From assembly GCF_003018255.1 (NCBI RefSeq), contig NZ_CP027440.1: a DNA stretch of 64,000 nucleotides. One strand, given 5' to 3'. The translations under genes and the position numbers were made by a program. The notes beneath the pieces were generated by a model. That model was not told the DNA's origin, did not search any database, and saw only the letters and a program-made list of their open reading frames with translations. The stretch's first letter is position 1. Each line of letters starts with the position of its first letter. Source of the stretch: Escherichia coli (GTDB lineage Bacteria > Pseudomonadota > Gammaproteobacteria > Enterobacterales > Enterobacteriaceae). Positions 33,088-43,944 of the stretch are shown here, in pieces.

Positions 33088-34761
33088 TCAGGAGAGATAT
33101 TCCGCCACCGGACCAAGCGCCAGGGCAGGGATAAAGGTCAGTGCGCCAACCAGCAACACGGTGCCGATTAACAGGCCAACAAACAGCGGGCCGTGCGTTG
33201 GCAGCGTGCCGGAGCTGGCGGGCTGGCTCTTTTTACTCACCAGCGAACCGGCAATTGCCATCACCGGGATAATTACCCCGAAGCGACCGACAAACATGCA
33301 GAACGCCAGCAAACAGTTCCAGAATGGAGAGTTGGCGCTTAATCCGGCAAAGGCGCTGCCGTTGTTGTTAGCGGCGGATGACACGGCGTACAGCACTTCG
33401 CTAAAACCATGCGGGCCAGGGTTGAGCATGGCGCTACGTCCGGCGTCGGTCATCATTGCCAGCGCCGCGCCCATCAGCGCCAGCGTTGGGGTGACCAGAA
33501 TCGCCAGCGCGGTCAGTTTCATCTCGCGTACGTCGATTTTTTTACCCAGATATTCCGGTGTACGACCAATCATCAGCCCAGCAATAAACACCGCCAGCAG
33601 GACAAACAGCATCATGCCGTAAAGACCAGAACCGACACCGCCGAACACCACTTCACCAATTTGCATCAGCCACATCGGCACCATGCCACCAAGAGCGGTA
33701 AACGAATCATGCATCGCAATCACCGCGCCACAGGAAGCCGCCGTAGTCACGACCGCAAACAGGCTACTGACCAGCACGCCGAAACGACTCTCTTTACCTT
33801 CCATATTGATGCTGCTGTCCGCGCCCAGTGCCAGCAGATGCGGATTACCCTGAACTTCTGCCCACATCACCACGCCTGTGCAGATGATAAAAATCACTGA
33901 CATCGCCCACAGCAACATGCGCCCCTGACGGCGATCGCCCGCCACTTCGCCAAAGGCAAAGCACAGCGCTGTTGGGATCAAGAAGATCGCCAGCATCTGC
34001 ACGAAGTTGGTCAGTGCGGTTGGGTTTTCAAACGGATGCGACGAGTTGGCATTAAAGAAGCCACCGCCGTTAGTGCCGAGCATCTTGATCGCTTCCTGAG
34101 AAGCTACAGGCCCCATGGGTAACAGCTGTTGCGCTCCTTCAACGGTATTCACCGCCTGATAGGGCAGAAAGTTTTGCAGCGCACCTTGTTGAATAAAAAA
34201 CAATGCGATCAACAACGCCACAGGGACTAGCACCCATAACGTGATGCGTAGCAGATCGACCCAGGCATTCCCGAGTGTGCTCATGCTCTGGCGGGTAAAT
34301 GCACGTATGAGGGCAAAAATCACCGCAATCCCGCTGGCGGCAGAAAGAAAGTTTTGCACCGTTAAGCCCGCCATCTGGCTGAAATAGCTCAACGTGGTTT
34401 CACCGCTGTAAGATTGCCAGTTGGTATTTGTGACAAAGCTGACGGCGGTATTCAGCGCCAGATCCCACGACAGTCCTGGCAACTGCTGTGGATTAAGCGG
34501 CAGATAGTGCTGACCGAGCAACATAAAAAACAGCACCGCCAGCCCCAGTATATTCAGGCCAAGAATGGCTGAGAGATACTGCTTCCAGTTCATCTCGCGG
34601 TCAGAGACGCCAAGCGCGCGAAAAAGTACGCGCTCAACGCCCGTCGTACCGGGAAGAGGAATGTCATTAATCAGCCGCGCCAGCCCGCTGCCTAAAGGAC
34701 GCGCCAGCACCATTAACACCAGTAAAAACGTGGCAATCAGTAAGAACCCTTGCGCAGCCAT
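33088..34761 (-). CDS. kdpA: Potassium-transporting ATPase channel subunit KdpA
   Basis: Track ORF 33088..34905 trimmed to the ATG at 34761: [32 protein letters not shown]..., 557 aa. Confidence 0.92.
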
Positions 34762-34850
34762 CAGAACGCCTCCGCATTGATCAGGGCATAAACCAGATAA
34801 CCCAGTAATAAAAACACCAGCAACACGCCGGCTATCACGCCTGCACTCAC
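34761..34850 (-). CDS. kdpF: Small membrane subunit KdpF (29 aa)
   Basis: GTG at 34850 gives (M)[28 protein letters not shown]; its stop overlaps the kdpA ATG by 1 nt. Confidence 0.65.
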
Positions 34851-34923
34851 AGTGCACCTCCAGTGGCCTAAAAGTGATACCGGAAGAGTAGAATTCTGGC
34901 TGCAAAGATTTCGCAAAAATCTG

Positions 34924-34953
34924 CGGGCGGGGTGTAAAAAAAGTATAAAAATG
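34924..34953 (-). promoter_or_regulatory. KdpE binding site of the kdpFABC promoter
   Basis: Minus strand reads CATTTTTATACTTTTTTTACACCCCGCCCG, which I recall as the KdpE-protected sequence, about 75-105 bp upstream of the kdpF start. Confidence 0.55.
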
Positions 34954-35162
34954 GCAAAAGCCATGATTTAACTAATGTTTAGTATTAATTTAACCTTTGT
35001 GTAACTTAATTACGGTATGAATGTAAATAAACCATCAATAAGCAAAAATAAGTGGTCGGATGAGTAGTAAAATTACACAAAAGGCGGTACTATTTTCATC
35101 AGATAAACAAATTCATTTTTCCGGTGCTATTCACCGGGTAGATACAAAAGGGGGAGAAAAGT

Positions 35163-35369
35163 ATGGAACTCTACAGAGAATATCCTGCATGGCTTATCTT
35201 TTTACGCCGTACTTATGCGGTTGCAGCGGGCGTTCTGGCGCTGCCTTTCATGCTTTTCTGGAAAGACCGCGCCCGCTTTTACAGCTACCTGCACCGCGTC
35301 TGGTCGAAAACCAGCGATAAACCGGTGTGGATGGATCAGGCCGAAAAGGCGACTGGTGATTTTTACTGA
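35163..35369 (+). CDS. ybfA: Small conserved protein YbfA (DUF2517)
   Basis: 68-aa [71 protein letters not shown]. Confidence 0.85.
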
Positions 35370-35391
35370 TTGCTGAGTTCTGAATACATTG

Positions 35392-35427
35392 AAAACCGCC
35401 AGCGGAAACGCTGGCGGTTTTTTTTGT
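35392..35427 (+). terminator. ybfA rho-independent terminator
   Basis: AACCGCCAGCG-gaaa-CGCTGGCGGTT hairpin followed by T9. Confidence 0.7.
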
Positions 35428-35613
35428 ATCAGGAAGATGTTCAGAGGAATATTTAGACACCGTTATACCAATCGAAACATATATTCATGAAATATATATA
35501 AATATTTTCCTAATTGTTCTTATCTGACAGATATCTCACTTAAGGCTTTCTTATAAATCTGTAGGGTTTCGCCTGTCAGCAGACAAATAACCCGATAAAA
35601 CAAGGATGAGCAG

Positions 35614-38600
35614 ATGAGCGGAAAACCGGCGGCGCGTCAGGGCGACATGACGCAGTATGGCGGTAGCATTGTTCAGGATTCAGCCGGGGTACGTATTGGT
35701 GCCCCCACCGGCGTGGCCTGTTCGGTGTGCCCCGGCGGGGTGACGTCCGGCCATCCGGTCAATCCGCTGCTCGGTGCGAAGGTCCTTCCCGGCGAAACCG
35801 ACCTTGCCCTGCCCGGCCCGCTGCCGTTCATCCTCTCCCGCACCTACAGCAGTTACCGGACAAAAACGCCCGCGCCGGTGGGGAGCCTCGGCCCCGGCTG
35901 GAAAATGCCTGCGGATATCCGCTTACAGCTGCGCGATAACACACTGATACTCAGTGATAACGGCGGCAGAAGCCTGTATTTTGAGCACCTGTTTCCCGGT
36001 GAGGACGGTTACAGCCGCAGCGAGTCACTCTGGCTGGTGCGCGGCGGCGTGGCGAAACTGGATGAAGGTCACCGGCTGGCCGCACTCTGGCAGGCGCTGC
36101 CGGAAGAGCTTCGCCTGAGTCCGCATCGTTATCTGGCGAAGAACAGTCCGCAGGGGCCGTGGTGGGTATTCGGCTGGTGTGAGCGGGTGCCGGAGGCGGA
36201 TGAGGTGCTGCCTGCGCCGCTGCCGCCGTACCGGATACTGACCGGGCTGGTGGACCGCTTCGGGCGCACACAGACGTTTCACCGTGAGGCTGGCGGCGAA
36301 TTCAGCGGCGAAATCACCGGCGTGACCGACGGCGCAGGCCGTCACTTCCGGCTGGTACTGACCACGCAGGCGCTGCGGGCAGAAGAGGCCCGGCAGAAGG
36401 CCACTTCCGGCGGGACGGAACCGTCCGCTTTTCCTGATACCCAGCCGGACTACACGGAATATGGCCGGGACAACGGTATCCGTCTGTCTGCCGTGTGGCT
36501 GACGCACGACCCGGAATACCCGGAGAATTTACCTGCCGCGCCGCTGGTACGCTATGGCTGGACGCCGCGCGGCGAACTGGCGGCGGTGTATGACCGCAGC
36601 AATACACAGGTGCGCAGCTTTACTTACGATGATAAATACCGGGGCCGGATGGTGGCGCACCGTCACACGGGCCGGCCGGAAATCCGTTACCGTTACGACA
36701 GTGACGGGCGGGTGACAGAACAGCTAAACCCGGCAGGCTTAAGCTACACGTATCAGTATGAGAAAGACCACATCACCATCACCGACAGCCTGGACCGCCG
36801 TGAAGTGCTGCACACGCAGGGCGAAGGCGGGCTGAAGCGGGTGGTGAAAAAGGAACACGCGGACGGCAGCGTCACGCAGAGTCAGTTTGACGCGGTGGGC
36901 AGGCTTAAGGCACAGACGGATGCCGCAGGCCGGACGACTGAGTACAGCCCGGATGTGGTGACCGGACTCATCACGCGCATCACCACGCCGGATGGCAGGG
37001 CATCGGCGTTTTACTATAACCACCACAGCCAGTTAACGTCAGCCACCGGGACTGACGGGCTGGAGTTGCGCAGGGAATATGATGAATCCGGCCGTCTGAT
37101 TCAGGAAACTGCCCCTGACGGCGATATCACCCGCTACCGTTATGATAATCTACACAGTGAATTACCCTGCGCAACGGAAGATGCCACCGGCAGCCGGAAA
37201 ACCATGACATGGAGCCGTTACGGTCAGTTGCTGACCGTCACTGACTGTTCCGGTTATGTAACCCGTTATGACCATGACCGTTTTGGTCAGATGACGGCGG
37301 CGCACCGCGAGGAAGGGCTGAGTCAGTATCGCGCATACGACAGCCGTGGACAGTTAATTGCGGTGAAAGACATGCAGGGCCATGAAACGCGGTATGAATA
37401 CAACGCCGCCGGTGACCTGACCGCCGTCATTGCCCCGGACGGCAGCAGAAACGGGACACAGTACGATACGTGGGGAAAGGCCATCCGTACCACGCAGGGT
37501 GGTCTGACGCGCAGTATGGAATACGATGCTGCCGGACGGGTCATCCGCCTGACCAGTGAAAACGGCAGCCACACCACCTTCCGTTACGATGTACTCGACC
37601 GGCTGATACAGGAAACCGGCTTTGACGGCCGCACACAGCGTTATCATCACGACCTGACCGGTAAACTTATCCGCAGCGAGGATGAGGGGCTGGTCACCCA
37701 CTGGCACTATGACGAAGCAGACCGCATCACGCACCGCACCGTGAAGGGTGAAACCGCAGAACAGTGGCGGTACGACGAACGCGGCTGGCTGACACAAATC
37801 AGCCATCTCAGCGAAGGCCACCGGGTGACGGTGCATTACGGGTATGATGAGAAAGGCCGCCTGACCGGTGAGCGCCAGACGGTACATCACCCGCAGACGG
37901 AAGCACTGCTCTGGCAGCATGAGACCAGACATGCGTACAACGCGCAGGGGCTGGCGAACCGCTGTATACCGGACAGCCTGCCCGCCGTGGAATGGCTGAC
38001 TTACGGCAGCGGCTGGCTGGCAGGCATGAAACTCGGCGACACACCGCTGGTGGATTTCACCCGTGACCGCCTGCACCGGGAAACGCTGCGCAGCTTCGGC
38101 CGTTATGAACTCACCACCGCTTATACCTCTGCCGGGCAGTTACAGAGCCAGCACCTGAACAGCCTGCAGTATGACCGCGATTACACCTGGAACGACAACG
38201 GCGAACTCATCCGCATCAGCAGCCCGCGACAGACCCGGAGTTACAGCTACAGCGACTCCGGCAGGCTGACCGGCGTCCACACCACCACCTCAAATCTGGA
38301 TATCCGCATCCCGTATGCCACGGACCCGGCAGGTAACCGCCTGCCCGACCCGGAGCTGCACCCGGACAGCACCCTCAGCATGTGGCCGGATAACCGTATC
38401 GCCCGTGACGCGCACTATCTTTACCAGTATGACCGTCACGGCAGGCTGACAGAGAAAACCGACCTCATCCCGGAAGGGGTTATCCGCACGGATGATGAGC
38501 GGACTCACCGGTACCATTACGACAGCCGGCACCGGCTGGTGCACTACACGCGGACACAATATGCAGAGCCGCTGGTCGAAAGTCGCTATCTTTACGACCC

Positions 38601-39300
38601 GCTGGGGCGCAGGGTGGCAAAACGGGTATGGCGGCGTGAACGGGACCTGACGGGCTGGATGTCGCTGTCACGGAAACCGGAAGTGACCTGGTACGGCTGG
38701 GACGGCGACCGGCTGACCACAATACAGAACGACAGAACCCGCATCCAGACGGTTTATCAGCCGGGGAGCTTCACGCCACTCATCAGGGTCGAAACTGCCA
38801 CCGGTGAGCTGGCGAAAACGCAGCGCCGCAGCCTGGCGGATGCGCTTCAGCAGTCCGGCGGTGAAGACGGTGGCAGTGTGGTGTTCCCGCCGGTGCTGGT
38901 GCAGATGCTCGACCGGCTGGAAAGTGAAATCCTGGCTGACCGGGTGAGTGAGGAAAGCCGCCGCTGGCTGGCATCGTGCGGCCTGACGGTGGAGCAGATA
39001 CAAAACCAGATGGACCCGGTGTACACGCCGGCGCGAAAAATCCACCTGTACCACTGCGACCATCGCGGCCTGCCGCTGGCGCTTGTCAGCACGGAAGGGG
39101 CAACAGAATGGTGCGCAGAATACGATGAATGGGGCAACCTGCTGAATGAAGAGAACCCGCACCAGCTGCAGCAGCTCATCCGCCTGCCGGGTCAGCAGTA
39201 TGATGAGGAGTCCGGCCTGTATTACAACCGCCACCGCTATTATGACCCGCTGCAGGGGCCAGGGAAAGATCACGTAACGCTGCTTTTTTGTACTAAATAA
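35614..39300 (+). CDS. rhsC: Rhs-family protein (RhsC-like core), C-terminally truncated: no DPxGL cleavage motif and no toxin domain
   Basis: 1228-aa GC-rich ORF with a PAAR-like N-terminal motif (KPAARQGD) and many YD repeats; it ends ...[11 protein letters not shown] plus 13 unrelated residues ([13 protein letters not shown]) and a stop. Confidence 0.85.
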
Positions 39301-40312
39301 TTCGCATTTTATGTTTAAAAATTGAGATATTCCTCATTACCTAAAGCTGTTTTTCATTGCTTATACATGATCAAATACTCCTTACATAATTAAGGAGAAC
39401 AAAATGGAACTTAAAAAATTGATGGAGCATATTTCTATTATCCCAGATTACAGACAAGCCTGGAAAGTGGAACATAAATTGTCTGATATTCTACTGTTGA
39501 CTATTTGTGACGTTATTTCTGGTGCAGAAGGTTGGGAAGATATAGAGGATTTTGGGGAAACACATCTCGATTTTTTAAAACAATATGGTGATTTTGAAAA
39601 TGGTATTCCTGTTCACGATACCATTGCCAGAGTTGTATCCTGTATCAGTCCTGCAAAATTTCACGAGTGCTTTATTAACTGGATGCGTGACTGCCATTCT
39701 TCAGATGATAAAGACGTCATTGCAATTGATGGAAAAACGCTCCGGCACTCTTATGACAAGAGTCGCCGCAAGGGAGCGATTCATGTCATTAGTGCGTTCT
39801 CAACAATGCACAGTCTGGTCATCGGACAGATCAAGACGGATGAGAAATCCAATGAGATCACAGCTATCCCGGAACTTCTTAACATGCTGAATATTAAAGG
39901 AAAAATAATCACAACTGATGCGATGGGTTGCCAGAAAGATATTGCAGAGAAGATACAAAAACAGGGCGGTGATTATTTATTCGCTGTAAAAGGAAACCAG
40001 GGGCGGCTAAATAAAGCCTTCGAGGAAAAATTTCCGCTGAAAGAATTAAATAATCCAGAGCATGGCAGTTACGCAATGAGTGAAAAGAGTCACGGCAGAG
40101 AAGAAATCCGTCTTCATATTGTTTGCGATGTCCCTGATGAACTTATTGATTTCACGTTTGAATGGAAAGGGCAGCCATGGACAGAAAATATCTGGCGTCA
40201 GTCCTTGCGGGGAGCGTGCTTTCGTAATTTTGCCCTGCTACAACAGGATTAACTTCACAAACATCATTTGCCAACGTCTACACTTACTCCTGTTAATATC
40301 TCAGGAGCAGTA
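39301..40312 (+). mobile_element. H-repeat (ISAs1-family) element remnant with an internal deletion
   Basis: AT-rich left end, then an ISAs1-like transposase ORF; the expected C-terminus ([18 protein letters not shown]) is present but in the +1 frame near 40171..40230, implying an internal deletion of roughly 0.3 kb. Confidence 0.65.
39404..40252 (+). pseudogene. ybfD: H-repeat-associated (ISAs1-family) transposase, frameshifted by an internal deletion (YbfD-like)
   Basis: 282-aa [35 protein letters not shown]...; about 250 aa are transposase-like, then an out-of-frame tail [26 protein letters not shown]. Confidence 0.7.
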
Positions 40313-40822
40313 ATGAATCAGCAACGATTTGATGAAAGCACTCTAATCCGTATCTTCGCGCTTTATGAGTTACATCGACTGAAAGAACATGGCTTAACGC
40401 GCGGGGCACTCAACGATTATCACAGCCGCTATAAACTCGTCTTTCTGGCCCATTCCCAGCCCGAGTACCGCAAACTTGGCCCGTTCGTGGCTGATATTCA
40501 CCAGTGGCAAAATCTGGATGACTATTACAACCAGTACCGCCAACGCGTAGTTGTTTTGCTTTCTCACCCCGCCAACCGACGTGACCACACCAATGTTTTG
40601 ATGCACGTTCAGGGTTATTTTCGCCCTCATATTGATTCCACAGAACGCCAGCAGCTGGCGGCGCTTATCGACAGTTATCGCGGTGGCGAGCAACCGCTTC
40701 TTGCGCCGCTGATGCGTATCAAACACTATATGGCGCTTTATCCTGACGCCTGGCTTTCAGGGCAGCGTTATTTCGAACTTTGGCCGCGTGTGATTAACTT
40801 GCGCCATTCAGGAGTTTTATGA
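40313..40822 (+). CDS. ybgA: DUF1722 protein YbgA (cotranscribed with photolyase)
   Basis: Track ORF 40268..40822 trimmed to the ATG at 40313 (CAGGAG RBS): MNQQRFDESTLIRIFALYELHRLKEHG..., 169 aa. Confidence 0.88.
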   Translation: MNQQRFDESTLIRIFALYELHRLKEHGLTRGALNDYHSRYKLVFLAHSQPEYRKLGPFVADIHQWQNLDDYYNQYRQRVVVLLSHPANRRDHTNVLMHVQGYFRPHIDSTERQQLAALIDSYRGGEQPLLAPLMRIKHYMALYPDAWLSGQRYFELWPRVINLRHSGVL

Positions 40823-42237
40823 CTACCCATCTGGTCTGGTTTCGCCAGGATTTACGTCAGCATGATAATCTCGCGCTGGCTGCCGCCTGCCGCAATTCGT
40901 CTGCAAGCGTGCTGGCGTTGTATATCGCTACACCACGCCAGTGGGCGGCGCATAATATGTCGCCGCGTCAGGCTGAATTTATCAATGCACAACTGAACGG
41001 GCTACAAATCGCGCTGGCGGAAAAAGGCATTCCTTTGCTGTTTCATGAAGTGGATGACTTTGCCGCCAGCGTCGAAATAGTTAAACAGGTGTGCGCGGAA
41101 AATCGTGTTACCCATCTGTTTTATAACTATCAGTATGAGGTGAATGAGCGGGCGCGGGATGTGCAGGCTGAGAGGGCGCTGCGTAACGTGGTGTGTGAAG
41201 GATTTGACGACGGCGTGATCCTGCCGCCGGGGGCGGTGATGACTGGCAATCATGAGATGTACAAAGTCTTTACGCCATTTAAAAACGCCTGGCTTAAACG
41301 GCTGCGAGAAGGGATGCCGGAGTGCGTCGCTGCGCCAAAAGTACGTAGTAGCGGATCGATAGATCCCGCGCCATCCATTACGCTGAATTATCCTCGTCAG
41401 CCTTTCGATACTGCGCATTTCCCGGTGGAAGAGAAAGCGGCGATTGCGCAATTACGCCAGTTTTGCCAGAACGGTGCCGGAGAGTATGAGCAACAGCGAG
41501 ATTTCCCTGCGGTAGAAGGCACCAGCCGTTTGTCCGCCAGCCTGGCAACGGGCGGGTTATCGCCTCGCCAGTGTTTGCATCGCCTGTTGGCGGAACAGCC
41601 GCAGGCGCTGGACGGTGGGGCCGGTAGTATCTGGCTTAATGAGCTGATCTGGCGCGAGTTTTACCGTCATCTGATAACGTATTACCCCTCGCTGTGTAAA
41701 CATCGTCCGTTTATTGTCTGGACCGACCGCGTGCAGTGGCAGAGCAATTCCGCGCATTTAAAGGCCTGGCAGGAAGGCAAAACGGGATACCCGATTGTTG
41801 ATGCTGCCATGCGTCAGCTTAACAGCACCGGCTGGATGCATAACCGGCTACGGATGATTACAGCCAGTTTTTTGGTGAAAGATTTATTGATCGACTGGCG
41901 CGAAGGTGAGCGATATTTCATGTCGCAGCTGATTGATGGTGATTTGGCAGCCAATAACGGTGGCTGGCAGTGGGCCGCTTCAACCGGAACCGATGCAGCG
42001 CCGTATTTTCGTATTTTTAACCCGACAACCCAGGGCGAGAAATTTGACCGTGAGGGCGAGTTTATCCGCCAGTGGCTACCGGAACTGCGCGATGTGCCAG
42101 GGAAAGTGGTGCATGAGCCGTGGAAGTGGGCGCAGAAAGCAGGTGTGACGCTGGATTATCCGCAACCGATAGTTGATCACAAAGAGGCAAGGCTGCGAAC
42201 GCTGGCAGCGTACGAAGAAGCGAGGAAAGGAGCCTGA
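40819..42237 (+). CDS. phr: Deoxyribodipyrimidine photolyase
   Basis: 472-aa ORF MTTHLVWFRQDLRQHDNLALAAA...; overlaps the ybgA stop (ATGA). Confidence 0.95.
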   Translation: MTTHLVWFRQDLRQHDNLALAAACRNSSASVLALYIATPRQWAAHNMSPRQAEFINAQLNGLQIALAEKGIPLLFHEVDDFAASVEIVKQVCAENRVTHLFYNYQYEVNERARDVQAERALRNVVCEGFDDGVILPPGAVMTGNHEMYKVFTPFKNAWLKRLREGMPECVAAPKVRSSGSIDPAPSITLNYPRQPFDTAHFPVEEKAAIAQLRQFCQNGAGEYEQQRDFPAVEGTSRLSASLATGGLSPRQCLHRLLAEQPQALDGGAGSIWLNELIWREFYRHLITYYPSLCKHRPFIVWTDRVQWQSNSAHLKAWQEGKTGYPIVDAAMRQLNSTGWMHNRLRMITASFLVKDLLIDWREGERYFMSQLIDGDLAANNGGWQWAASTGTDAAPYFRIFNPTTQGEKFDREGEFIRQWLPELRDVPGKVVHEPWKWAQKAGVTLDYPQPIVDHKEARLRTLAAYEEARKGA

Positions 42238-42279
42238 TAAAACGCAGCGAGCGTCTTATCAGGCATCGGTGCTGGCCTG

Positions 42280-43944
<1,665 letters not shown>

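Follow-up and report, generated by a model that had tools for sequence, protein, structure and literature searches.

A 1993 paper by Zhao et al. in J Bacteriol is said to have described the 1291-bp H-rpt and, in RhsC, its defective copies arranged in tandem. It is established that a main rhs gene can recombine with orphan core fragments downstream of it. The terminal inverted repeats of the ISAs1 family begin with CAGGG (ISfinder). The H-repeat has been described as an IS-like sequence for which transposition was never observed (PMC3032704), and ybfD and ydcC have been listed as putative transposases with no known function (PMC4032248). Intact ISEc1 copies are yhhI in RhsB and ydcC in RhsE of K-12, both of which are 1291 bp long and have the ends CAGGGAAAGATCA... 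and ...TCGTAATCTTGCCCTG. The K-12 gene ybfD (b0706, NP_415234.1) is annotated to encode the "H repeat-associated putative transposase YbfD" of 253 aa; it is located immediately upstream of ybgA and, of the defective H-repeats in the RhsC element, is the last one. Orphan modules of the rhs-CT/rhsI type are also known to occur on the downstream side of main rhs genes (Poole et al., 2011; PMC3150448).

The window, i.e., the whole stretch of 64,000 nt from the Escherichia coli contig NZ_CP027440.1 that was analysed, has the gene order kdpFAB-ybfA-rhsC-(H-repeat)-ybgA-phrB-dtpD. The original prediction had placed an internally deleted H-repeat element of the ISAs1 family between a truncated rhs gene and ybgA. 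To judge from its sequence, this feature is already known and annotated: it is ybfD, the broken H-repeat copy beside ybgA, with the old 313-bp deletion of K-12. The features of the locus are the following:

35614..39300, plus strand: main rhsC ORF of 1228 aa, with DUF6531, 11 RHS_repeat stretches and the RHS core PF03527
39069..39259, plus strand: 3′ end of the Rhs core, which is doubled in the nearest genomes (end of the main core and a 191-bp orphan fragment)
39260..40237, plus strand: H-repeat / ISEc1 (ISAs1-family) element of 978 bp, from the alignment to the intact 1291-bp element
39260..39274, plus strand: left terminal inverted repeat CAGGGAAAGATCACG, matching the right end at 12 of 15 positions
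39404..40252, plus strand: ybfD ORF of 282 aa, from the ORF list and domain models
40171..40172, plus strand: deletion junction with 2 bp (GC) common to both sides, from BLASTN against intact copies
40171..40227, plus strand: remnant of the C-terminal end of the transposase, in a frame other than that of the ORF, from translation
40223..40237, minus strand: right terminal inverted repeat, reverse complement CAGGGCAAAATTACG, from the comparison of the ends
40314..40822, plus strand: ybgA (DUF1722), from ORF and domain models
40819..42237, plus strand: phrB, the next gene after ybgA, from ORF and domain models

An alignment with the intact yhhI and ydcC copies, which had been proposed together with the prediction, defined both the terminal repeats and the endpoints of the deletion. 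Using BLASTN, the intact positions 1-913 were found to correspond to window positions 39260-40172 with 96.4% identity, and the intact positions 1225-1291 to 40171-40237 with 95.5% identity. The intact positions 914-1226 are absent from the window copy, and as these 313 bp are not a multiple of three, a frameshift results. Thus, the predicted internal deletion of about 0.3 kb with a change of frame was verified, and its endpoints could be fixed at 913/1225. The 2-bp GC microhomology at the junction sits inside an imperfect GAAA(G/A)GC repeat. The element does not reach the full ISEc1/H-repeat length of 1291 bp, and CAGGG-type terminal inverted repeats, as in yhhI and ydcC, have been kept at both of its ends. 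The predicted limits of 39301-40312 had to be revised to 39260..40237; the element starts 41 bp further upstream, inside the rhs ORF. In agreement with the predicted position between the truncated rhs gene and ybgA, the latter begins 61 nt past the stop codon of the ybfD ORF, which is 76 nt past the right end of the element. Target-site duplications, which had also been suggested, were not detected: no direct repeat of 4-12 bp abutted the window element or the intact K-12 copies yhhI and ydcC, and the copies in EDL933 and AF40 were likewise devoid of one.

Apart from the missing positions 914-1226, the window copy differs from yhhI and ydcC in its first 30 bp, which have the variant sequence ATCACGTAACGCTGC. 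The left end at 39260..39290 (CAGGGAAAGATCACGTAACGCTGCTTTTTTG) deviates from the left ends of the two K-12 copies at nine positions within about 30 bp, and it is identical to the left ends of H-repeats in two metagenome contigs (L022 and L023, see below). As judged from these comparisons, it is a distinct left-end variant that is linked to the junction with the Rhs core. A scan of 34500-42500 against Rfam yielded no match, and a scan of 39150-40450 for sigma-70 promoters and terminators did not yield more sites than were counted in shuffled sequences.

The ORF at 39404..40252 matched the NCBIfam model of ISAs1 transposases (NF033564) with 291.6 bits and an E-value of 6.8e-87, at a curated cut-off of 70 bits. 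Together with the nucleotide alignment to yhhI and ydcC, this bore out the predicted assignment to the H-repeat/ISAs1 family. The match covered positions 1-229 of the 314 positions of the profile, compared with 1-314 for the intact YhhI. Two Pfam models were also matched above their gathering thresholds, namely DDE_Tnp_1_assoc by residues 8-94 and DDE_Tnp_1 by residues 102-232; in the case of the latter the window ORF covered profile positions 3-139 of 200, and YhhI covered 3-200 of 200. According to these profile matches, the similarity to the ISAs1 family greatly exceeds what chance would give, and the protein is missing its C-terminal third. It had been predicted that the ORF is colinear with full-length H-repeat proteins for about 250 aa and then jumps frame. 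The jump was verified, and the exact figure turned out to be 256 codons, which are colinear with the intact transposase of 378 aa. Codons 257-282 form an out-of-frame tail that extends beyond the right end of the element. The C-terminal peptide, which had been expected in another frame near 40171..40230, is encoded at 40171..40227.

A search of the PDB sequences with the intact YhhI did not yield a solved relative, and therefore the catalytic triad was taken from an alignment of six full-length ISAs1-family transposases with 26-46% identity, i.e., YhhI, ISKpn31, ISAzs5, ISPa60, ISAeme2 and a copy from Streptomyces. In all six of them D109 (in the motif AxDGK), D172 (DA) and E306 (W-x-I/V-E-N) are invariant, and by analogy with the known architecture of IS4-like DDE transposases these residues probably constitute the DDE triad. 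The window ORF has retained D109 and D172. Codons 257-360 of the intact transposase, including E306, are deleted, and a complete DDE domain is not present. The original prediction of a non-functional transposase is thus in accord with the loss of the invariant E306. From its coding content, the window element encodes no complete DDE transposase, and it would be unable to move on its own. The sequence PW-TEN in the tail of the window ORF came to lie under the W..EN motif in the alignment, which was regarded as a chance alignment without meaning. Programmed frameshifting that restores the C-terminus was ruled out, because 104 codons are physically absent.

The junction 913/1225 is identical in the window, in K-12 ybfD, in AF40 and in JNE112863, and from the right end of the element onward the flank of the window is colinear with that of K-12. 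The K-12 copy shares with the window the locus upstream of ybgA-phr, the 313-bp deletion, a nucleotide identity of about 95-96% and the right junction, at which CCCTG is directly followed by CTACAACAGGATTAACTTC. The two copies differ in several respects. K-12 ybfD has a TAG at codon 254, resulting in the product of 253 aa, whereas the window reads through to 282 aa. Furthermore, the initial 24 bp of the element are missing from the K-12 copy, which is arranged in tandem with ybfL and ybfQ, while the window harbors a single copy whose left end is complete and joined to the Rhs core. At least 80% of the window region 39150-40420 was contained in one place in 3,701 of the 5,426 complete genomes of E. 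coli. A probe of 461 bp, reaching from the deletion junction into the start of ybgA, was matched in a single piece in 35 of 60 records that had been chosen evenly spaced down the ranking. This share corresponds to roughly 55-60% of the E. coli records with the same junction and right flank. In the PGAP annotation, the ybfD copies have the label "ISAs1 family transposase, incomplete, missing C-terminus". A different situation was found in EDL933 (O157:H7; L007 3301..4666) and CT02 (L008 3303..4950), in which a full-length H-repeat, and not the deleted ybfD, is located near ybgA. This H-repeat bears a stop or a frameshift, and its right end is separated from the conserved region upstream of ybgA by 75 or 359 extra bp.

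The state of the ORF was compared in 11 genomes, which comprised the window, its clade members 2014C-3075 and JNE112863, and eight genomes from outside this clade. The ORF of 282 aa is open only in the three members of the clade. All eight other genomes contain premature stops, and in five of them the first stop is located at codons 18-119, with one of the five also being frameshifted. The first stops in ybfD are the following:

codon 18: E2855 and YSP8-1
codon 25: E166 (by frameshift)
codon 65: GON1437
codon 119: E28
codon 236: AF40
codon 254: K-12 and ATCC 8739

Because the alleles bear premature stops at so many different positions, ybfD is, in our reading, a decaying remnant and not a retained gene. 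The opposite possibility is that the truncated YbfD, with the N-terminal DNA-binding domain DDE_Tnp_1_assoc and two thirds of the catalytic domain, is a functional protein that has been retained; like other truncated transposase derivatives, it could act in trans to inhibit or regulate the transposition of H-repeats. The open ORF in the window, 2014C-3075 and JNE112863 fits such a role, as does the presence of a gene for the identical protein on at least 23 contigs. In addition, ybfD probes report transcripts in K-12, and the signals of ybfD and ydcC go up in long-term stationary phase (PMC4032248). However, the K-12 expression probes and primers fall into sequence that is common to all H-repeat copies, and the stops in eight of eight genomes outside the clade speak against retention. 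A hint of constraint might also be seen in the pairwise dN/dS values between the deletion-bearing alleles, which are 0.1-0.24 over codons 1-253 and thus below the expectation for a long-dead pseudogene. Yet these values are confounded by mosaicism with other H-repeat copies, and they are provisionally attributed to imported sequence that had evolved under constraint elsewhere. The mosaicism is visible in several comparisons. K-12 and YSP8-1 do not differ in the tail of the element, ybgA and phrB, yet their leaders and left halves of ybfD diverge by 7-8%; between K-12 and ATCC 8739 the leader diverges by 0.8%, the left half by 4.3% and the right half by 1.4%. The left flank varies from a fragment of the Rhs core (window) to a truncated toxin tip (AF40) and a tandem H-repeat (K-12), while the right flank is constant. 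The mosaic left half, the variable left flank and the missing target-site duplications together point to repeated homologous exchange, affecting the left part, with other H-repeat copies. Retention of a functional YbfD is thus considered highly improbable. A domestication of YbfD, which the low dN/dS had suggested, was set aside in view of the multiple independent stops and the mosaicism.

The truncated rhs gene of the original prediction turned out to be the main rhsC gene. It is cut after ...RYYDPLQG at 39259, and its last 13 codons and the stop codon are supplied by the left end of the H-repeat. The window rhsC has neither a DPxGL region nor a toxin tip, and an immunity gene is absent as well. 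In JNE112863, the closest complete genome, the main core goes on with RYITQDPIGLKGGW..., RYITQDPIGL..., into the tip. The tip is followed by a gene of 189 aa, an NTF2-fold immunity gene (Imm-NTF2), a DUF6258 gene and the 191-bp orphan core fragment, which abuts the H-repeat. In the nearest relatives it is thus only the orphan fragment that adjoins the element. Compared with the window, the nearest genomes (identity of 99.2-99.9%) contain an additional 2,850 bp at the junction of rhsC and H-repeat (L006 7361..10210). Window positions 34900-39259 are 99.2% identical to the main core region of JNE112863, and positions 39069-40900 are 99.9% identical to its orphan fragment, ybfD and ybgA, so that the two matches overlap by 191 bp. 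At 39085 the window has the base of the main copy, and the two copies of JNE112863 are identical over 39086-39259 (174 bp). This indicated that the window equals its relative minus 2,850 bp, with a crossover inside the 174-bp repeat.

The 191-bp fragment of the nearest genomes is homologous to the main gene and resembles the orphan rhs-CT/rhsI modules in this respect. It differs from them in that it has neither a toxin nor an immunity part and is cut by the H-repeat before the DPxGL region. Recombination with this fragment would yield a tipless Rhs protein, unlike the new toxin that is gained from an orphan rhs-CT/rhsI module.

The fusion in the window is likely to be a real and recent recombinational deletion, and this is the preferred explanation of the crossover described above. 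It has to be weighed against the possibility that the assembler skipped the 2.85-kb loop between the copies of the 174-191-bp core repeat. The rarity of the short arrangement makes such an artefact conceivable. The short form was found in none of the complete E. coli genomes, and the longer form was present in five of five near-identical complete genomes as well as at all seven places listed of the 23 contigs that encode the identical 282-aa YbfD (four of them on chromosome-length records of 3.7-5.1 Mb). A look-up of the exact fused product of 1228 aa found nothing on record, and the sequence pattern diagnostic of the fusion occurred in none of the GTDB representative genomes and in none of the 21 loci compared. 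The same pattern was, however, detected in two metagenome contigs, L022 (OLFA01000339.1) and L023 (OLEA01000550.1). In both of them the Rhs core sequence CTGCAGGGGC is directly followed by CAGGGAAAGATCACGTAACG, which is identical to the junction in the window, but the core is joined to a full-length H-repeat of 1291 bp. L022 represents the rhsC locus, with an Rhs ORF of 1228 aa and then a second rhs gene of 1386 aa, while L023 represents the nikR-rhsB locus and contains an intact transposase ORF of 378 aa. Hence, the junction between Rhs core and H-repeat seems to move between Rhs loci, and tipless main Rhs genes ending at this junction seem to exist, although the two contigs are themselves assemblies. 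Recombination between main rhs genes and orphan cores being an established process also argues against an error, and an artefact is regarded as possible, but less likely.

Alternatively, the fused state could be ancestral, and the relatives would have later gained a cassette of core end, tip and immunity genes that, by C-terminal displacement, moved the 191-bp core end and the H-repeat downstream as an orphan. The abrupt start of the orphan in the relatives at 39069 and its identity with the end of the main core from 39086 onward are what a displacement model predicts, and the rhsC gene of L022 is likewise fused to a full-length H-repeat. Nevertheless, the window and JNE112863 are 99.9% identical downstream and 99.2% identical upstream of the junction, and the cassette is present in every close relative. 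To assume that it was lost recently in a single lineage is therefore more parsimonious, and an ancestral fusion is judged to be rather improbable. It is hardly to be expected at all that the open ybfD is a retained trans regulator of the remaining H-repeat copies, or that the recurrent junction of Rhs core and H-repeat represents a specific off-switch for the Rhs toxin.

Taking up the preferred explanation of a recent deletion again, the history of the locus may be pictured as follows. One old deletion of 313 bp joined the element positions 913 and 1225 at the 2-bp GC microhomology, thereby taking out codons 257-360 with the third catalytic residue E306 and shifting the frame. Later on, homologous recombination among H-repeat copies and among Rhs core repeats, and not fresh transposition, would have reshaped the locus repeatedly. 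In the lineage of the window, recombination in the 174-bp core-end repeat would have taken out a 2,850-bp segment that comprised the toxin tip, the spacer and the immunity genes. The rhsC core would have been left fused to the left end of the element, gaining 13 junk codons and a stop codon, and RhsC would be disarmed, with the linked immunity being lost. The account as a whole, with an inactive H-repeat remnant orthologous to K-12 ybfD in a locus reshaped by recombination, is regarded as very probable, and the loss of the tip segment of rhsC in the window, as one part of it, as likely.

As an annotated, decaying insertion-sequence remnant that is common to most E. coli, ybfD is of little weight in itself. 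The analysis gives the exact endpoints of the shared 313-bp deletion, and it suggests that the locus changes through recombination among H-repeat and Rhs-core repeats and not by transposition. On present sequence evidence, the peculiarities of the window are local ones only, namely a 282-aa ORF that this clade still keeps open and a rhsC core that is fused directly with the element. If the assembly is right, the strain is devoid of the RhsC toxin tip and the immunity genes, and how it fares against its closest relatives in contact-dependent competition would be altered.

A further observation concerned the genes downstream of the element. In ybgA and phrB (40314..41900) the nucleotide difference between E. 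coli strains is 4-7% (window versus loci L002, L003 and L016-L021) and follows a mosaic pattern. For chromosomal genes within a single species this divergence is high, and it suggests that recombination is frequent beside the Rhs element. Between 2014C-3075 and the window the difference is 0-0.3% in ybfD, 2.8% in ybgA and 0.8% in phrB.
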